Of a stretch of DNA of 64,000 nt, positions 335-61,254 are shown in pieces; the first letter of the stretch is position 1, and each line of letters opens with the position of its first letter. Under the pieces are notes generated by a model, which saw only the letters and a list, made by a program, of their open reading frames with translations, searched no databases and was not told where the DNA came from. The position numbers and the translations under genes were made by a program. The stretch is from Oligoflexales bacterium (GTDB taxonomy: Bacteria; Bdellovibrionota_B; Oligoflexia; Oligoflexales; Bog-1112), in NCBI GenBank assembly GCA_045106415.1, contig JBGCEP010000012.1:1-64000 (forward strand), read 5' to 3'.

Positions 335-692
335 TGGTGGAGGCGGCGGGAATCGAACCCGCGTCCACACCTAGGGTATGAGAAGCGCTACATGCTTAGC
401 ACCGTAATTATCCTCTTGATTAGAACGCCTACGGTCAGGCTTTCTAACCCGCAGCCTGATTAAATGTCACACTTCAGCCTCCAGGCGGAAAGCTTTGTGT
501 TAAGCCAGCAGTAATAACGATGCCCCCGCGGCACTGGCGACCACAAGTTTATCGGCAGCTAATTTATATTAAGCTGCGAGTGCGTAATCGTTGCCGACTA
601 AGCGATGAAACGCGGTTATAACCGGGTCACGTTCCCACCCCGGACATGCTCTCCAGCACACCTTCTAAGCCCGTCGAAACCATGACGCCCCC
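335..692 (-). ncRNA. ssrA: tmRNA (one-piece, 358 nt); tag reading frame 595-569 encodes GNDYALAA*
   Basis: The minus strand starts GGGGGCGTCATGGTTTCGAC and ends GGTTCGATTCCCGCCGCCTCCACCA. The acceptor stem has the G3.U Ala identity pair. The internal frame GGC AAC GAT TAC GCA CTC GCA GCT TAA ends in the typical ALAA. Confidence 0.97.
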
Positions 693-1784: not shown

Positions 1785-4131
1785 CACTTTTCAAGACCGT
1801 TTAATTACAATGCGTAAGACCCAACAAAGGATTCGTACATTATGTTGGTTATTGGCAACAATTGCCTTTACGGTATGTTTTATAGCTTTGTATCATTTCT
1901 GGTTAAACCCTGTTCCAATTACTGTATTACAGGTTTGCTTTTTACCTGGTATTATTTTTCTGTATCTCCGCAAAGAAACGCTCCCGAATTTTAATTTTTC
2001 CAAGCTTCGTCTTTTTTTTGATATGCAGCACCCTAATGAAAGCTCTCCTTTTACAGCTGGAGATCACATCTCCCACTACGTAGAGCAAGAGTTAAAATAT
2101 CAAATAGATCTTGAAAAGAAGACGACTCAAGCATGTATCCGTAAAACTCTTCCCATAGCTTTTGTTTTCACTCTTTTTGCCGGTGGAATGTTCAAATATG
2201 GTCACTTTCAACTCTCAGGCTTACACTTACTTATTCCCACTGAAGTCACCTTAGAAGTTGTGGAAGGTCATTTTACAAACTTTCAAGATGTCATCTTACC
2301 ACTACAGTCATCAACAACTCCTCAGATGCTTGAAACCCATAAGGATAATCTCTTCAAGCTCAGTATCACCCCTTTTCAAGGAAAAGATCTGTCGTTAAAT
2401 CTGATTGCTCCAAAGAGCAATCAATTGATTCAAAGCTTTCAACTACAGGCTGTCTATGAAAACTCTCAATCACCAATGGGTTACGGCCTCGAATTCACAA
2501 TTTCCGAGGACACCCTTCTCGTGATTCCAGAGCTAAGCTCTCAGCCGTATGCCTCTATACAGATTCTATCTAAGCCGATACCAAAAGTGACATTAGAACT
2601 TCAAGCTGAATACATAGATCCTTGGCCTGATCATCAAGCCGTCCCATTAAAACTAAAAATAAAATCTCAAAACCCTCTCCAAAAAGTTATTCTTGAATTT
2701 TCTGTTAACGGTCAAAAACACCAAGAGCATATCGAGTCGTTCACGACCTCAACACGGACAGCAGAGTACGACCATGCTCTTCACCTCGAACCATACCTTC
2801 AAGACGACATGGCTTCTGTAATCATTCACGCAATCGCGTTTGATCAGACACAACCTCAATCTCTTATGGGTTCAAGTGACCCTGTTTTTTTACGAGTTGC
2901 CAGTGCCTATGGCCGCTATTTACAAACACTTGACAAGCTACGAGCAATTAAAAAAGACGTTGATCAGTGGGTTGCTGAAGGAGAGCAGAAGAAAAATAAC
3001 CAAAGCCTTATAAAACAGATGCGAGACGTTGCTATTTCATCTAATGACTCCCCTTTTTTTGATGGCCTTGACCGTATTGAATTAAATCACATTGAGCATA
3101 TGATTTCACAAACCAAAACGAGCTCCCCTTCGGAGGCTCTTCAGGTAGCTAAAAAAATTGATTCTTTTCTACAAGATCACGAAATGCTCAATGACAGAGA
3201 GCGTGACAGAGATTTTTTTGTTGCTTTACGAGGCCTTTCTCGCCTTATAGAAACGCCTGGTCATCAGAATAAAAAACACATTCAATCAGCGACAAAAAGT
3301 TTAAATACATTCTTAACCGAAAGACAAAAAAGGTGGGAACAAAGGGTTAAAAAACTTAAAACACCACCACCGTCATGGGACCACCTTCAAAAAAATAGTT
3401 TTCAAAGCCAACTTCAAAAATTTTCTAAAAATCAACACACTTCACCTTCTTCTCGTATCACTACGAACACAGCAATAAAAACTCTCTCTCATTTGGGTCA
3501 ACAATATAGAAGATGGTTAAACGAACTGGAAGGCTTAGAAGACAAGCAAAAATCTCAGCAAGAACAGAAAAGACAACAAGGATTAGCCTCTGCAAAAGCA
3601 ACATTGAGAGAGCTTCAACAACGCCAAACGAAAATATCGACAACTCTTGATCAAGCTGAAACCCGCCAACAAAAAATTGATGCTCAATGGCCTCTTACTC
3701 GCATGAACCAGAACTCCAATATAAAACTTGCTCGTAAGCTCACCGCACAACTTCAGTCGCTTGCACCACAAGCCGCACAGCGATTATCAGCAGCTCACGA
3801 TTCCATGCTCGAAACAATTAAATACGGTGGTGAAAAACAATATCAAGCGGCCGAAACCTTTGCAGACCGTGCTGGCCGACTTCTTCGAGAAGCCAAGAAA
3901 AAAACATCACAAGCTCAACAAAAATCACACAAAAGAGGCCGCAGACGCCGCATCAGTGGTGATCGTTATTATGGACGATCTGTAAGCGGAGGAATGGACC
4001 TTCATCGAGAATACTCCGTCGATCGTAAATATCGCGAAGACATCCTCGATGAAGTCAGTCGTTCTGAGGATCAGCAAAGCCCTGAAGACGCAAGTCTTTT
4101 AAACTCTTACTTAAGACAAGTCATTCGTTAG
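1741..4131 (+). CDS. Large membrane-anchored protein with beta-rich middle and coiled-coil C-terminus (DUF4175-like)
   Basis: N-terminal TM segments, an Ig-like middle region, Q/K-rich helical repeats and a C-terminal 'YREDILD...YLRQV' pattern. The family assignment is by recollection. Confidence 0.6.
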
Positions 4132-35564: not shown

Positions 35565-35640
35565 TGGTGGAGATAAGCGGAATCGAACCGCTGACCTATA
35601 CAATGCCATTGTATCGCTCTACCAACTGAGCTATATCCCC
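35565..35640 (-). tRNA. tRNA-Ala(GGC)
   Basis: GGGGATATAGCTCAGTTGGTAGAGCG-ATACA-ATGGCAT-TGTAT-AGGTCAGCGGTTCGATTCCGCTTATCTCCACCA, 76 nt with encoded CCA. TTGACA upstream at 35681-35676. Confidence 0.98.
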
Positions 35641-57265: not shown

Positions 57266-59620
57266 TCATAAAGGAGTCTTAAGCTTCTCTCTAAAGCCTT
57301 GATTCACTAATAAGAAAAAACTTGAAACAGCTTCTTTTATTTCTGAACCTGCGTATAAATGTCCATCTCGAATTTCCACGCCCTTTGCCGTCTCAAGAGC
57401 AAGTAAGCTACTTTTTAATATCTTGCTCTCAATCAGCTCTCTTGACCCAGACAACAATGATTGTCTGTGCAGCATTTTTAAACAACTAACTTCAAACGAC
57501 TGCAACGATAAACCGCCTGATTTCAACTCTTGAGATAAAAAAAGACACATATGACTAAATATTTCAATTTCAGGCTTCATCAATCGGGCAAAGACGCTCA
57601 AATCAGAAAATTCAGAGCTCAAAACATAACTTCTATGAATTTCATCATGATTTTGATGTAAAAGATTTTCATCAACCATCACTTGAACAGCAGCAGAAAC
57701 CTGCTCTTTAGTCATTTTTTCAAGAAAGAGCTCCTGCCCTACGATTTCTATCACTTTACTTACACAAGCACATAATTCATCTTTTTGGATGATATCATTA
57801 TGCATAAAAAATGCAGCAATCAGAGATGGAGCAGCATAAAGGTGCAAAGTATTATTTCTATAATATTGCAACACATCAGCTTCTTGACTATCGACATAAA
57901 CAACAGCTCCAGTCGGATGCGTAAATCGCTTCACACCTCCAAAGGTCAGAGCAATATTTAGAATATCTTGCGCACTTTTATAATCACACTGAATGTTTTC
58001 TCCATGGATTTTCACTAGCATTCTCATCGAGATTTCAATCAAATCTAATATTTGCACTTCGTCTAACGCATCTCCATCAGATGACAGAAGGAGTGTCGAA
58101 ACATGTGCCATTGGCGTAAGAAGGGCTGCTTGATTGACCTTTATCATCATGTTTTTAGCTATTTTTTTAATATCATCAGACTCATAACTCCCATGATTGT
58201 TAATCAGTAAAGGTTCTCCATAATGAAAGTATGCATGACCTGCCCGCGCACCAATAAGTTTGAAAGCATGAAAAAGTTGCCATATAGATTCTACTTTTTT
58301 ACGTCTCCCTCGTCGTTCTGCTGCAAAACTTCTTCCTTCAAACAAACGATCATAATTAATATAAACAGGCACTAAAGCAAGACTACGATCAGCATCTTTA
58401 GCGCTCTGCAAAACCATGCTTAACATTCCTGTTTTGGGTGAGAGAAGTTTACCTGTTCGACTTCTTCCTCCTTCAGGAAAAAACATCAAAGGAAAACCTT
58501 TTCGAATTAAATAAGAAAGATACTGCCGAAAAATACTTGTATAAAGCTTTTGCCCTGCAAAAGTTCGTCTAATATAAAAAGCTCCTGCTCGACGCAAAAG
58601 CCCGCCAATAGGCCAAAAATCAAGATTTTTACCGGCTGCCGTATGAGGAGGGGTCAAACCCGCTTGATAAATCATTTGCCCTAGCATGAGATAATCCACA
58701 TGACTGCGATGACATGGCATAAAAATTAATGTGTGCTTTTCTGCGTAAGGCCTTAAATTTTGGAGACCTCGTATCATGACATCATCATACATCCGAGCCC
58801 ATAGTTTTTCTAAAAGAACAGAACAAAATCGAATAATAGATTGAGTCGGCTTTGCTGCAATTTCGTCTGCATGCTTTTCGGCTTTTATATGCATTTTTCG
58901 CCTTTGAGATTCATTTTTTCCATCTTCTTGGATCATTTTTTGAATCTCAGGTGCCATGACAACATCTCTAATTAACTGTTGACGGTCGTATAATTGAGGA
59001 CCCAAAGAAAAATTTCTCTGCTTTTTAAATTGGATTCTTAATAACCGCCTGAGCTTTCGACCTGTTTCTTGTGAAGATCTATTTTCTTCTTGCAATGCTT
59101 TTTGCACTGAAAGAGGAGATCCTATATGGCAAGAGACTCTTTGTCCTTGTACAAAAAACATAACCAAACGCTGAAGCCATCCACCATACTCATCATCAAA
59201 AAACAAAAGATGGAAAAGGGACTTCTCTTCTCGACCTGGATCTCTTCCCCAAAAAACACTAATAGGGACCAATATCACATCTTTAGAATTTTCTTTTATA
59301 GCATTATTTAAAATAAGCCTAAGTGCTTTAGGAATGCCTCGTTTTGAACGGCTTCGCAACATACCCTTAGGACCAAGTACAAAATTTTTTCTCAGCGGTG
59401 ATAAAAGATGATGTTTTTCAGCATGACCATCATAAACTAAAAGATCAGTTAAAGAGCGACTCCTAAAAACATATTGAATACTATTCGGATCCAATCCCTC
59501 TAATTGCTCAACGCCAAACAATTCACTTCTAACCCAAAGATTCATGAACCATCGTAGTATATAAAGACACAATGTTTGTACACGATTCAAAAAAGTTCTT
59601 TGTAAATGTTGCACACGCAT
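57266..59620 (-). CDS. plsB: Glycerol-3-phosphate acyltransferase
   Basis: WGRDPGRE, HRSHVD, GAFYIRR, FPEGGRSRTG and YYRNN. Confidence 0.92.
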   Translation of the reverse strand: MRVQHLQRTFLNRVQTLCLYILRWFMNLWVRSELFGVEQLEGLDPNSIQYVFRSRSLTDLLVYDGHAEKHHLLSPLRKNFVLGPKGMLRSRSKRGIPKALRLILNNAIKENSKDVILVPISVFWGRDPGREEKSLFHLLFFDDEYGGWLQRLVMFFVQGQRVSCHIGSPLSVQKALQEENRSSQETGRKLRRLLRIQFKKQRNFSLGPQLYDRQQLIRDVVMAPEIQKMIQEDGKNESQRRKMHIKAEKHADEIAAKPTQSIIRFCSVLLEKLWARMYDDVMIRGLQNLRPYAEKHTLIFMPCHRSHVDYLMLGQMIYQAGLTPPHTAAGKNLDFWPIGGLLRRAGAFYIRRTFAGQKLYTSIFRQYLSYLIRKGFPLMFFPEGGRSRTGKLLSPKTGMLSMVLQSAKDADRSLALVPVYINYDRLFEGRSFAAERRGRRKKVESIWQLFHAFKLIGARAGHAYFHYGEPLLINNHGSYESDDIKKIAKNMMIKVNQAALLTPMAHVSTLLLSSDGDALDEVQILDLIEISMRMLVKIHGENIQCDYKSAQDILNIALTFGGVKRFTHPTGAVVYVDSQEADVLQYYRNNTLHLYAAPSLIAAFFMHNDIIQKDELCACVSKVIEIVGQELFLEKMTKEQVSAAVQVMVDENLLHQNHDEIHRSYVLSSEFSDLSVFARLMKPEIEIFSHMCLFLSQELKSGGLSLQSFEVSCLKMLHRQSLLSGSRELIESKILKSSLLALETAKGVEIRDGHLYAGSEIKEAVSSFFLLVNQGFREKLKTPL

Positions 59621-59707
59621 GAAGCCCTCGTTTTAAGATTGCGACTATCATTATTTAAAACTAACGCACAAACACGGAACAGAGATTTCAATGAAGAGTC
59701 CGTTTTC

Positions 59708-59758
59708 TTTGTTCAACCTACTATGAAAACAAAATATTTTCATAGTAGGTTGAACAAA
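59708..59758. repeat. Perfect 22-bp inverted repeat with a 7-nt loop
   Basis: TTTGTTCAACCTACTATGAAAA-CAAAATA-TTTTCATAGTAGGTTGAACAAA. Confidence 0.95.
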
Positions 59759-59776
59759 AAAGTAACAATAAGTTCT

Positions 59777-60037
59777 TGTAGGTAGAAATGAGATGATAGC
59801 GCTCAGCTACACGAATGAAGACGCCTTAAATTCAAGGCATGTGGTGAGGTGGATCGGTTGGAAGATTAAAAGTTTCCTTCATAGAAACTTGGTCATCATA
59901 GACCTGCTCTCGCTTTCGCGTTATCACCTTCGTATGAACTACATCTAGCTCTTCCGACGCACACTATGTTCTTCGGTGTTTTGAGGAGAACCTTAAGCCT
60001 AGACTAAGATCAAGAATGAAAAATTCTATTTATTCTT
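59777..60037. ncRNA. Candidate multibranch non-coding RNA (~260 nt)
   Basis: At least eight stems, including GTTGGAAGA/TCTTCCGAC enclosing three short hairpins. The CWTCRTA motif repeats. The segment is GC-richer than its flanks and has no ORF in the track. Confidence 0.55.
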
Positions 60038-60317
60038 AACAGATTTTCTCTTTTTTAAAAGTTAATTCTCAATAAAAAAGCAGATAAAAACTTCGTAAAT
60101 CAATAGCATATCGCAAGAAACAACTGCATCATTTTTGTTAAGACTTCATTCGGTCTCATTACAATCACAAGACCATTTTTCTAAAAAAATATTTTCAACA
60201 AAGAATCAAAGTAAAACTTCAACATATTTGAAAATATTATATATTCCATTTTTAAGAGAAACCGGTCAAGAAATCCATACTTTTTATATAGACTGCAAAC
60301 CGTATTTATAAATTGCA

Positions 60318-60362
60318 AAAAAGAACTAAAATCCAAGTCAAAACATGATTTTAGTTCTTTTT
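60318..60362. terminator. Bidirectional intrinsic terminator downstream of rodZ
   Basis: AAAAAGAACTAAAATC-13 nt-GATTTTAGTTCTTTTT. Confidence 0.7.
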
Positions 60363-60369
60363 GATTCTC

Positions 60370-61254
60370 TCATATTTTTTTCGCCGCATATATAGGCTTA
60401 GAAGCTGCAGAAAATGTAAGTTTTCTCTCACCTGATCCAAGAGGGCCAAGATCACGACCTTGAAAAAAGATATTTACTTTTGCTGCGTCCTTGATCGTTA
60501 TTGACAATGTCTCTTGAAAAGAAAGAGTTTCTACCCCTGCCTTCCATAGTTTTTCAGCTTGAGCATGATCATCAGAAGTCCAACGGATCCCAACCTCTTC
60601 CAAAACAGTGAGCTTTAGAAGCCCTCCTTCTTGCGGTTCTATCGCTTGCTCAACAAGCAGCTTTGGATCACTACCCTTTACAGACTCATCTGTATTCATC
60701 GCGCTGTCACTCGCTGCAGCGACTATAGGGGGCGCAGCAGGCTCTGTAAGCGGAGATGAAGCTACAACCTCAGCAGGCTCTGTCGCTTGCTCTACTGTAA
60801 GCTCAACCTCTCGATTTTCTCCTAAAAGAAAGTACCATCCACCCAGCGTCACGAGCCCCGCAGCAGCCAACCCTGCAAAAAACACAGGGCGGCCCCATAA
60901 GCGGGATAAAGATCGTCTTGATCTTGACATTTTGCTGTGGTGAGGAACTTCATAACGGGCCGGTTCATCATCCCAGCACATTTCATAAACATCAATAAGA
61001 TCCTTAGGCGGCACGTCTAACGCAACGCACAGGTTTTTTATAAAACCTCGCCCAAAAACCTTACCTGGTAGAGACTCAAAGTCACCGCTTTCCAAGGCCA
61101 TCACAAAATTCGGTGAAATTCTTGTCGCGTGCACGAGCTCTGTTAAAGATTTTTCTCGACCTTCTCGCGCAGCGCGCAAAAAGCCACCAAAAATTTGCCG
61201 TTTTGTTTCAATCGGCAAATCTCCATCAATCGTAAGCTTGCAACCGTCGCCCAT
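60370..61254 (-). CDS. rodZ: RodZ-like cytoskeleton protein (HTH, TM, DUF4115-like)
   Basis: GGFLRAARE...TRIS...ALESGDF..LPGKVFGRGFIK, a single TM and a C-terminal beta domain. Confidence 0.85.
   Translation of the reverse strand: MGDGCKLTIDGDLPIETKRQIFGGFLRAAREGREKSLTELVHATRISPNFVMALESGDFESLPGKVFGRGFIKNLCVALDVPPKDLIDVYEMCWDDEPARYEVPHHSKMSRSRRSLSRLWGRPVFFAGLAAAGLVTLGGWYFLLGENREVELTVEQATEPAEVVASSPLTEPAAPPIVAAASDSAMNTDESVKGSDPKLLVEQAIEPQEGGLLKLTVLEEVGIRWTSDDHAQAEKLWKAGVETLSFQETLSITIKDAAKVNIFFQGRDLGPLGSGERKLTFSAASKPIYAAKKI

Follow-up and report, generated by a model that had tools for sequence, protein, structure and literature searches.

A covarying structured RNA family of Oligoflexales beside rodZ: a candidate protein-binding RNA of the sigma-28 regulon

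The Oligoflexales, sister to the predatory Bdellovibrio-like bacteria, have been little studied. Several described RNA systems resemble the element considered here in part. In Escherichia coli, MotR, FliX, FlgO and UhpU are sigma-28-dependent small RNAs (sRNAs), and the pan motif RNA (RF01749) is located upstream of panB or panC. The leaders of hag in Bacillus subtilis and flaA in Campylobacter jejuni, which we take to combine a sigma-28/sigma-D-type promoter with two AGGA-loop hairpins, the second of them Shine-Dalgarno-like, would share these traits with the RNA described below. FliW-partnered CsrA is described, in PMC4894983 and bioRxiv 10.1101/2020.07.02.184341, as controlled by FliW rather than by sRNAs, and a portion of PMC3627812 presents the attack-phase RNAs of Bdellovibrio as structured, highly phase-specific and proposed sponges. 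Here we report a putative stand-alone structured sRNA gene of ~110-140 nt at 59837-59996, on the minus strand of a 64,000-nt stretch (the window; contig JBGCEP010000012.1 of the Oligoflexales bacterium assembly GCA_045106415.1), between plsB and rodZ. In our reading it acts in trans, binds a protein and belongs to the sigma-28 (late flagellar) regulon; to this we give a probability of about 0.5.

The element is contained in a 749-bp spacer (59621-60369) flanked by two minus-strand genes. A blastn search of this spacer against 40 relatives returned short chance matches only, and low-word-size blastn between spacers also failed to show homology; no PlsB relatives were found in scans of genome contigs and metagenome contigs, and the genomes of the same family are all distant (PlsB identity just 35-44%). 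The homology was first spotted by eye in spacers upstream of plsB and later confirmed with a covariance model. Three loci (L019, L020 and L031), from three genomes of one genus, carry a conserved element immediately after rodZ, with the motif series found on the minus strand of the window: UACGAAG(A/G)UGA, three hairpins and then UUAAUCUUC. The covariance model R1 was built from these three loci only, leaving the window out, with its structure drawn from compensatory changes. It matches the window at 59837-59996 on the minus strand with 44.5 bits (rough E ~3e-9), which is its sole match in the 64 kb, and the same element is its only match in the whole genome to which the window belongs. Since R1 was built without the window sequence, this match is an independent test of homology and settles the strand as minus.

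Exactly one copy was found by R1 in 70 of the 95 genomes of the order, that of the window included, and none in 36 other genomes of the phylum (f17 0/2, f18 0/1, f19 0/33). Being a three-sequence model, R1 has limited sensitivity for divergent members; laxer filters, applied to 10 of the 25 genomes without a match, brought out three more weak matches (38.6, 26.2 and 20.7 bits), all of which adjoin plsB and rodZ or the TPR neighbour of rodZ. Matches of 16.7-18.5 bits in G035 and G020 are not syntenic and were rejected as noise. A degenerate pattern of the core formed by hairpins P5 and P6 (see below), searched in one genome per prokaryote species, occurs in 43 places. R1 confirmed 34 of them, in records labelled Oligoflexus, Oligoflexales, Pseudobacteriovorax and similar, together with some vaguely or oddly labelled metagenome bins; the nine unconfirmed places belong to unrelated phyla and look like chance. 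As far as searched, the family appears confined to Oligoflexales.

At gathering scores, Rfam recognises only a transfer-messenger RNA (tmRNA; 130 bits, 335-692, minus strand) and one tRNA (35568-35640, minus strand) in the window. When 59550-60450 was scanned permissively by E-value, the only match within 59837-59996 was the archaeal small nucleolar RNA sR32 (E 1.1, 12.8 bits), and the loci of relatives (five, then six loci) gave no relevant match with E up to 1. We found no description of this RNA family in Rfam 15 or in a text search for papers on Oligoflexus small RNAs. The initial annotation had proposed a multibranch RNA foreign to Rfam, and the empty scans at the element, the R1 homology and the covariation in 70 sequences agree with it. 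A homologue search, as it had recommended, gave single-copy homologues in the 70 genomes, and 30 of 35 pairs have both-side changes. We conclude that the family is undescribed and that the window element is, to judge by this homology, a genuine member rather than a chance resemblance. The annotation had also seen no RNase P, signal recognition particle (SRP) or 6S signature, and rightly so: the RNA is not RNase P-sized, and 6S RNA (RF00013, contig C26) and SRP RNA (RF00169, contig C30) are encoded elsewhere in the genome of the window, as they are in four relatives.

The fold is conserved with covariation. Helix P1 closes the whole; inside it stand the hairpin P2 and the helix P3, which in turn encloses the hairpins P4, P5 and P6. 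In the window the parts are the following:

59837-59996, minus strand: full R1 match (44.5 bits), comprising a promoter-like element, the structured RNA core and a 3′ tail
59954-59957, minus strand: 5′ strand of P1, UCGG, pairing with CCGA at 59854-59857
59854-59857, minus strand: 3′ strand of P1, CCGA, from the R1 match and the 70-sequence alignment
59936-59951, minus strand: hairpin P2, GAGCU-AGAUGU-AGUUC, with both-side changes in 6/6 pairs and recovered by RNAalifold
59926-59931, minus strand: 5′ strand of P3, GAAGGU, with a conserved UAC before it, pairing with AUCUUC at 59861-59866
59861-59866, minus strand: 3′ strand of P3, AUCUUC, from R1, the alignment and RNAalifold
59911-59920, minus strand: hairpin P4, CGC-GAAA-GCG, a variable helix here in its shortest form, with 6/6 pairs doubly changed
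59891-59904, minus strand: hairpin P5, GGUC-UAUGAU-GACC, with an A-N-G-A loop, 99.7% paired and 5/5 pairs doubly changed
59870-59890, minus strand: hairpin P6, AAGUUUC-UAUGAAG-GAAACUU, with a second A-N-G-A loop, 97.7% paired and 6/8 pairs doubly changed

Structure statistics were computed on the 70 sequences aligned to R1. Standard pairs are formed in 94.6% of 2173 cells, compared with 78.4% in column shuffles, and both-side changes occupy 397 cells in the 30 pairs that show them, compared with 122 in shuffles; this alignment was fitted to the R1 model, which favours the model. None of 500 shuffles reached any of the pairing measures, and sliding the partners by 1-3 columns lowered pairing to 35-64%. 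Applied to this alignment, RNAalifold independently predicts four of the helices (P2, P3, P5 and P6).

All six helices form in the window copy: P1 (4 bp), P2 (5), P3 (6), P4 (3), P5 (4) and P6 (7). P1 reads AUGG/CCAU in the three closest relatives, those used for the model, and UCGG/CCGA in the window, a difference of two compensatory changes; across the 70 sequences all four of its pairs are doubly changed. P3 is GGAGAU/AUCUCC in most members and GAAGGU/AUCUUC in the window, its columns 158:321 hold G-C 41, A-U 19 and G-U 10 times, and UACGRAG is conserved at its start. P2 is variable in length, with insertions of up to ~60 nt in relatives, and P4 is paired in 80.8% of cells, with many gaps. 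P5 and P6, directly adjacent, are the most conserved parts of the RNA. The P5 pentaloop has A in 68/70 sequences, any base at the second position (G38, U17, A11, C4), G in 67/70, A in 70/70 and any base at the end; the P6 pentaloop, on a nearly invariant GCC/GGC stem, has A in 70/70, a free second base (G31/U22/A17), G in 69/70, A in 70/70 and G in 58/70. Pairing of the P5 loop with the 3′ tail was sought by eye, and nothing consistent was found.

Seen against this model, the drawing in the initial annotation is right in its centre and wrong in its periphery. Its three inner hairpins lie where it placed them and are P6 (59870-59890), P5 (59891-59904) and P4 (59911-59920), helices of the whole family. 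Of its two outer stems, GTTGGAAGA/TCTTCCGAC can form but is not the family pairing, which is P3 (AUCUUC/GAAGGU) and P1 (CCGA/UCGG) instead, while the outermost, ATGTGGTG/CACTATGT, is absent from the family model and sends one arm into the predicted start region. Hairpin P2 (59936-59951) is missing from it, and the flanking hairpins at 59968-59991 and 60012-60037 fall in or upstream of the promoter-like element. Three copies of the TAYGAWG repeat are indeed present, all on the minus strand (59877-59883, 59894-59900 and 59928-59934), and three in 58 nt make only a local cluster; the motif is common in the window, with 54 matches where shuffled sequence would give 27.2, and the family conserves A-N-G-A loops and UACGRAG instead. 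Overall, a structured RNA at ~59837-59996 outside any Rfam family held up; a folding energy above chance, the outer stems and the open strand did not.

The strand had been left unresolved with a slight lean to plus. R1 matches the minus strand only, and the G.U pairs of the family fit that strand alone (U.G in 45/70 at columns 282:296, G.U in 29/70 at 279:300). A plus-strand RNA, a small protein gene in the 51-aa frame at 59793-59948 (plus strand) or a set of chance hairpins could appeal to the ATG start of that frame, to a U.G pair on the plus strand in one stem of the earlier drawing and to folding z-scores that are not significant (given below). Variation in the helices is compensatory and not codon-like, the 51-aa frame has no Pfam match, and single-copy conservation in 70 genomes excludes chance, so that we find this group of explanations very hard to credit. 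The open reading frames (ORFs) of the spacer (51, 58, 51 and 59 aa) gave no Pfam match, and the pattern of conservation is RNA-like.

In every family a bipartite element with fixed spacing, CTAAAG(T/A)T-N13-CCGA(A/T), precedes P1; relatives carry CTAAAGTT-N13-CCGAW upstream of the RNA. The regular expression CTAAAGNT-N13-CCGA matches 21 of 31 loci, one-letter variants (GTAAAG, TTAAG, TCAAG, TCGAT) are found in nine further loci, and one locus is N-masked. The window has CTTAAGGTT-N12-CCGAAGAA (59996-59969), with the same total length as in relatives, and its two halves are:

59989-59996, minus strand: -35-like element TTAAGGTT, resembling the sigma-28 (FliA) type and aligning with the CTAAAGTT of relatives
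59969-59976, minus strand: -10-like element CCGAAGAA, resembling the sigma-28 type, at the CCGA position of relatives, which in 20 relatives matched by the regular expression falls 13 nt past CTAAAGNT

The sigma-28 consensus of E. coli is TAAAGTTT-n11-GCCGATAA, as a section of PMC2859248 gives it. Compared with that consensus as a sequence match only, the window arrangement TTAAGGTT-N12-CCGAAGAA agrees in 6/8 and 5/8 letters at the same overall spacing. In Bdellovibrio bacteriovorus, TTAAG-N16-CCGATA is reported in 92 of 140 attack-phase promoters in one part of PMC3627812. The RNA is apparently driven by a sigma-28 (FliA)-type promoter, and E. coli promoter geometry would put the transcript start at ~59960-59963.

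The genome of the window has genes for FliA (a match of 282 bits, which exceeds the curated cut-off) and, in a flgI-flgL cluster, for FlgM. One of its eight flagellin-family genes has the motif upstream at the same spacing (contig C74, CTAAATAA-N13-CCGAAGTC) and one more has it at a spacing one base shorter; in relatives, inspection by eye found it upstream of 3 of 20 flagellin genes. None of the 12 strict sigma-28 motif matches across the genome of the window is obviously flagellar. In the relative G027, the genome as a whole is enriched in CTAAAG-N15-CCGAW, with 18 matches where the reversed control has 5. The genes downstream of the motif there include those for a PilZ-GYF protein, a type IV pilin-like protein, fn3 proteins and a carbonic anhydrase, with no flagellin among them, which suggests a sigma-28-like regulon extending beyond flagella, as a portion of PMC3627812 reports for Bdellovibrio.

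The presence of the RNA follows the flagellar system. By hand cross-tabulation of R1 matches and flagellin, the RNA is present in 70 of 81 flagellin-bearing genomes and in 0 of 14 without flagellin. These 14 belong to families f4, f5 and f9 and to five genera of the window's own family. The same holds within genera: in g6, three genomes have both and one has neither, and in g11 there is one of each kind.

We hypothesize that a sigma-28 (FliA)-type promoter drives the RNA from a start a few bases before P1; a promoter of this type would mean that the RNA accumulates together with the late flagellar, motile-phase regulon. The A-N-G-A pentaloops of P5 and P6, on GC-rich stems, would then present paired sites to a dimeric RNA-binding protein, a partner suggested by two near-identical sites at a distance of ~20 nt. 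If the RNA of this regulon worked by base pairing instead, the promoter-like element and the terminators of relatives (see below) would fit equally well. In that case the unpaired UACGRAG, AGUGC, the loops or the 3′ tail would pair with flagellar or other mRNAs, and the core would act mainly for stability. FliA-dependent sRNAs have precedents: in Bdellovibrio, three sRNAs of the attack phase carry a FliA motif (PMC3627812), and there are further examples in Campylobacter (PMC11187230). The tail past P1 is also conserved within subgroups. On the other hand, conservation is highest in helices and in A-N-G-A loops whose free second base makes a poor seed, and an elaborate covarying four-way core is unusual for seed-type sRNAs; we consider a base-pairing sRNA, the main rival to our reading, unlikely.

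At least 11 of 30 relatives have, by eye, an intrinsic terminator (stem and U-run) ~10-30 nt past P1. In the window the sole candidate is the following hairpin, a possible weak 3′ end:

59823-59838, minus strand: small hairpin GCCUU-GAAUUU-AAGGC, followed by the U-poor tail GUCUUCAUUC

In all loci examined the RNA comes after rodZ on the same strand, and in most families panC (pantoate-beta-alanine ligase, Pfam E 1e-101) stands between the RNA and plsB. This order of rodZ, RNA, panC and plsB on one strand, the terminator that at least 11 of 30 relatives have 10-30 nt past the RNA and an aptamer-like conservation of the fold would be expected of a cis-acting leader or riboswitch for panC-plsB, that is, for pantothenate/coenzyme A (CoA) and phospholipid synthesis, with the terminator as expression platform. 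However, the RNA is kept in three genomes in which panC was not detected (those of the window, G013 and G002) and in three g6 genomes with panC on another contig (G005, G011 and G015), and its presence tracks flagellin rather than panC. In one family a separate conserved promoter-like sequence, GTGTAATACT, lies between the RNA and panC. G014, a congener of the three g6 genomes, has no RNA; it retains rodZ and plsB, with ~90 bp between them and the same promoter-like element in front of plsB. The terminators, the retention of the RNA without panC and the rodZ-plsB pair of G014 argue together against a panC or plsB leader; a sigma-28-type promoter would moreover be odd for CoA or lipid genes, and neither the pan motif nor any riboswitch of Rfam gave a match. 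The pan motif itself was rejected as a candidate, with no RF01749 match with E up to 1 in six loci including panC, and with the RNA persisting where panC does not. We regard a panC-plsB leader as improbable; the long plsB leader of the initial annotation fails on the intervening panC of most families, on the terminators and on the RNA-less congener that keeps rodZ-plsB.

The search for panC (Pantoate_ligase) found none in the genome of the window, which is 93.8% complete, nor in G013, G010, G014, G001 and G002, an indication that some members of the family are pantothenate auxotrophs. Eight loci of one family carry a conserved AAAAAGTGTAATACTA(C/G)CTCCACTTTT before panC, ~100-150 nt past the RNA, which resembles an extended -10 promoter together with a conserved leader.

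The constant position after rodZ raises a further alternative, namely that the RNA is a 3′ untranslated region (UTR) element of rodZ, made by read-through or processing, which stabilises or regulates rodZ without being an independent gene. It lies directly after rodZ in every locus examined, and in three relatives the conserved sequence begins a few bases past the rodZ stop codon. In the window, on the contrary, ~370 bp and a terminator-like hairpin (60318-60362) separate the two; several relatives have a rodZ terminator before the CTAAAG element, and G014 keeps rodZ although it has no RNA, flagellin or csrA. This makes a rodZ 3′ UTR element even less probable than a panC-plsB leader.

A number of observations weigh against our reading of the RNA. 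The minimum free energy of the 261 nt originally annotated is unremarkable against shuffles (z -0.21 on the plus strand, -0.98 on the minus strand); from the window sequence alone, the hairpins are not demonstrably above chance, and their support is comparative, through an alignment that, as said, was fitted to the model. A terminator scan of 59400-60500 found none in the window. We infer the promoter, start, end and expression of the RNA, all four, from sequence. Most of the other flagellin genes examined have extended -10-like promoters instead of the motif, and in a relative other than G027 CTAAAG-N15-CCGAW is not enriched (14 matches against 25 in the control). As to the flagellin genes of relatives, eight upstream regions have a TGnTA(C/G)(G/T)AT-like extended -10 at ~60-70 nt before the start codon, and the multiple flagellin genes (~8 per genome) seem to be split between promoter classes.

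If the RNA binds a protein, CsrA is the leading candidate, although a doubtful one. The initial annotation had suggested protein sequestration of CsrB-like logic with another loop code, and this is still the best working hypothesis, with its invariant A-N-G-A pentaloops and AGGA in most relatives. The loops of most relatives, AGGAU in P5 and AGGAG in P6, are like CsrA sites; GGA is present in the P5 loop of 40/70 and the P6 loop of 30/70 sequences, with 1-10 GGA per RNA, and the strand before P4 is often UACGGAGAUGGA, which contains two ANGGA words. A flagellin leader in the genome of the window (contig C74) has AGGA hairpins, CACAGGAGUG and ACCAGGAGGU, that resemble the P6 of relatives (GCCAGGAGGGC). 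The gene csrA was found in 84 of the 95 genomes. All but one (69) of the 70 carriers of the RNA have it; the exception, which is the only csrA-less flagellated genome, is 66% complete. In the genome of the window (contig C78, 8500-17000), flgI, a flgJ-like rod-binding gene, flgM, flgN, flgK and a flgL-like gene are followed by csrA (99 aa) and fliW; csrA-fliW at the end of such a cluster is the arrangement of a FliW-controlled CsrA.

Several facts speak against CsrA as the partner. CsrA is known to require GGA, and the window copy has UGA in place of GGA in both loops and only 2 GGA in 160 nt. The second loop position is free in the family (G in just 38/70 in P5 and 31/70 in P6), and GGA density is modest, at ~5.5 per 170 nt. 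Invariant stems and a covarying multibranch core exceed what a simple sponge needs. Finally, the association of the RNA with csrA is inseparable from its association with flagella; four genomes have csrA and lack both flagellin and the RNA.

If the partner is nevertheless the flagellar CsrA, the RNA would titrate or buffer it while sigma-28 is active, and the window copy, with its UGA loops, would bind CsrA weakly or serve a partner that reads A-N-G-A. Taken to its end, this would make the family the first case of an RNA that antagonises or buffers the FliW-partnered CsrA of a flagellar system, a sigma-28-fired decoy copying the twin AGGA hairpins of flagellin leaders, with the UGA loops of the window lineage reflecting a relaxed CsrA code or capture by another dimeric A-N-G-A reader. 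We offer this extended version as speculative, no firmer than the choice of CsrA itself.

The genes on either side of the spacer are:

57266-59620, minus strand: plsB, encoding a 784-aa protein with GPAT_C and Acyltransferase domains
60370-61254, minus strand: rodZ, encoding a 294-aa protein with an HTH_25 domain and a weak RodZ_C match

Within the AT-rich spacer, ~59780-60000 forms an island of 40-50% G+C. The hairpin at 60318-60362 lies just past the rodZ stop, and ~320 bp of 15-30% G+C separate it from the promoter-like element of the RNA; in relatives only a few dozen bases lie between rodZ and the RNA. Between the RNA and plsB there is a perfect 19-bp inverted repeat with a 7-nt loop (GTTCAACCTACTATGAAAA, 59698-59766). 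With a T-run before it and an A-run after it on both strands, it is unlike a usual terminator whichever way it is read. The repeat occurs just once in the genome of the window (self-match only), attracts spurious plant microRNA matches and may be an operator or a relic of a lost panC region. In G011, the spacer between the RNA and plsB holds a G+C-rich imperfect palindrome of ~140 nt (GCGTAAGCCACTTGGGGCAA..., L020 ~3847-3984), which has a spurious MIR1858 match and is possibly a mobile or repeat element inserted there. In G007, where rodZ synteny is broken and no RNA of the R1 family was found, a tRNA-like sequence lies at the end of the spacer just upstream of plsB.

A single-copy, order-wide RNA supported by covariation and lost with flagella offers a testable entry to post-transcriptional control of motility in the Oligoflexales. 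If its partner were CsrA, the textbook division of CsrA control, by sRNAs in Gammaproteobacteria and by FliW for the flagellar type, would no longer hold; a decoy would add a layer of RNA control to the CsrA-FliW-flagellin partner switch, which is not known to involve sRNAs. If the partner were another protein, the invariant twin A-N-G-A pentaloops would represent a new RNA recognition code. R1 itself is ready for use in genome annotation as a new covariance model.

Compared with the known systems, the RNA shares with the pan motif its place next to panC in most families. The attack-phase sRNAs and merRNA of Bdellovibrio bacteriovorus come from a related predatory-lineage group and, in the relevant parts of PMC3627812, have a FliA-type motif, a likeness that we draw by description only (APsRNA3, 6 and 7); merRNA contains a riboswitch for cyclic di-GMP according to the same source, and the R1 family has no such Rfam match. 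Like MotR, FliX, FlgO and UhpU of E. coli and like CJnc170 of Campylobacter (for the latter, PMC11187230), it would belong to the late flagellar regulon by virtue of its sigma-28 promoter. Those sRNAs are short, Hfq- or seed-type, often UTR-derived and act by base pairing, whereas the R1 family has a conserved multibranch fold. The flagellin leaders, to which it was likened by inspection, differ in that no coding sequence follows the RNA, which has terminators and the extra helices P1-P4.

CsrB, CsrC, RsmX, RsmY and RsmZ are the remaining comparison. The R1 family has no sequence or model similarity to them (no Rfam match to CsrB/CsrC/RsmX/Y/Z at the window or the loci of relatives), its promoter is sigma-28-like and not of the GacA/UvrY type, and the host CsrA is of the FliW-partnered flagellar type. 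The family also has fewer GGA per length, does not conserve the loop G that precedes GA, and has a fixed, covarying multibranch core. Like these RNAs, however, it appears to stand alone, with its own terminator and several hairpins with purine-rich loops; most of its loops read AGGA(N), further ANGGA words (ACGGA, AUGGA) lie nearby, and its two adjacent sites would suit a dimer.

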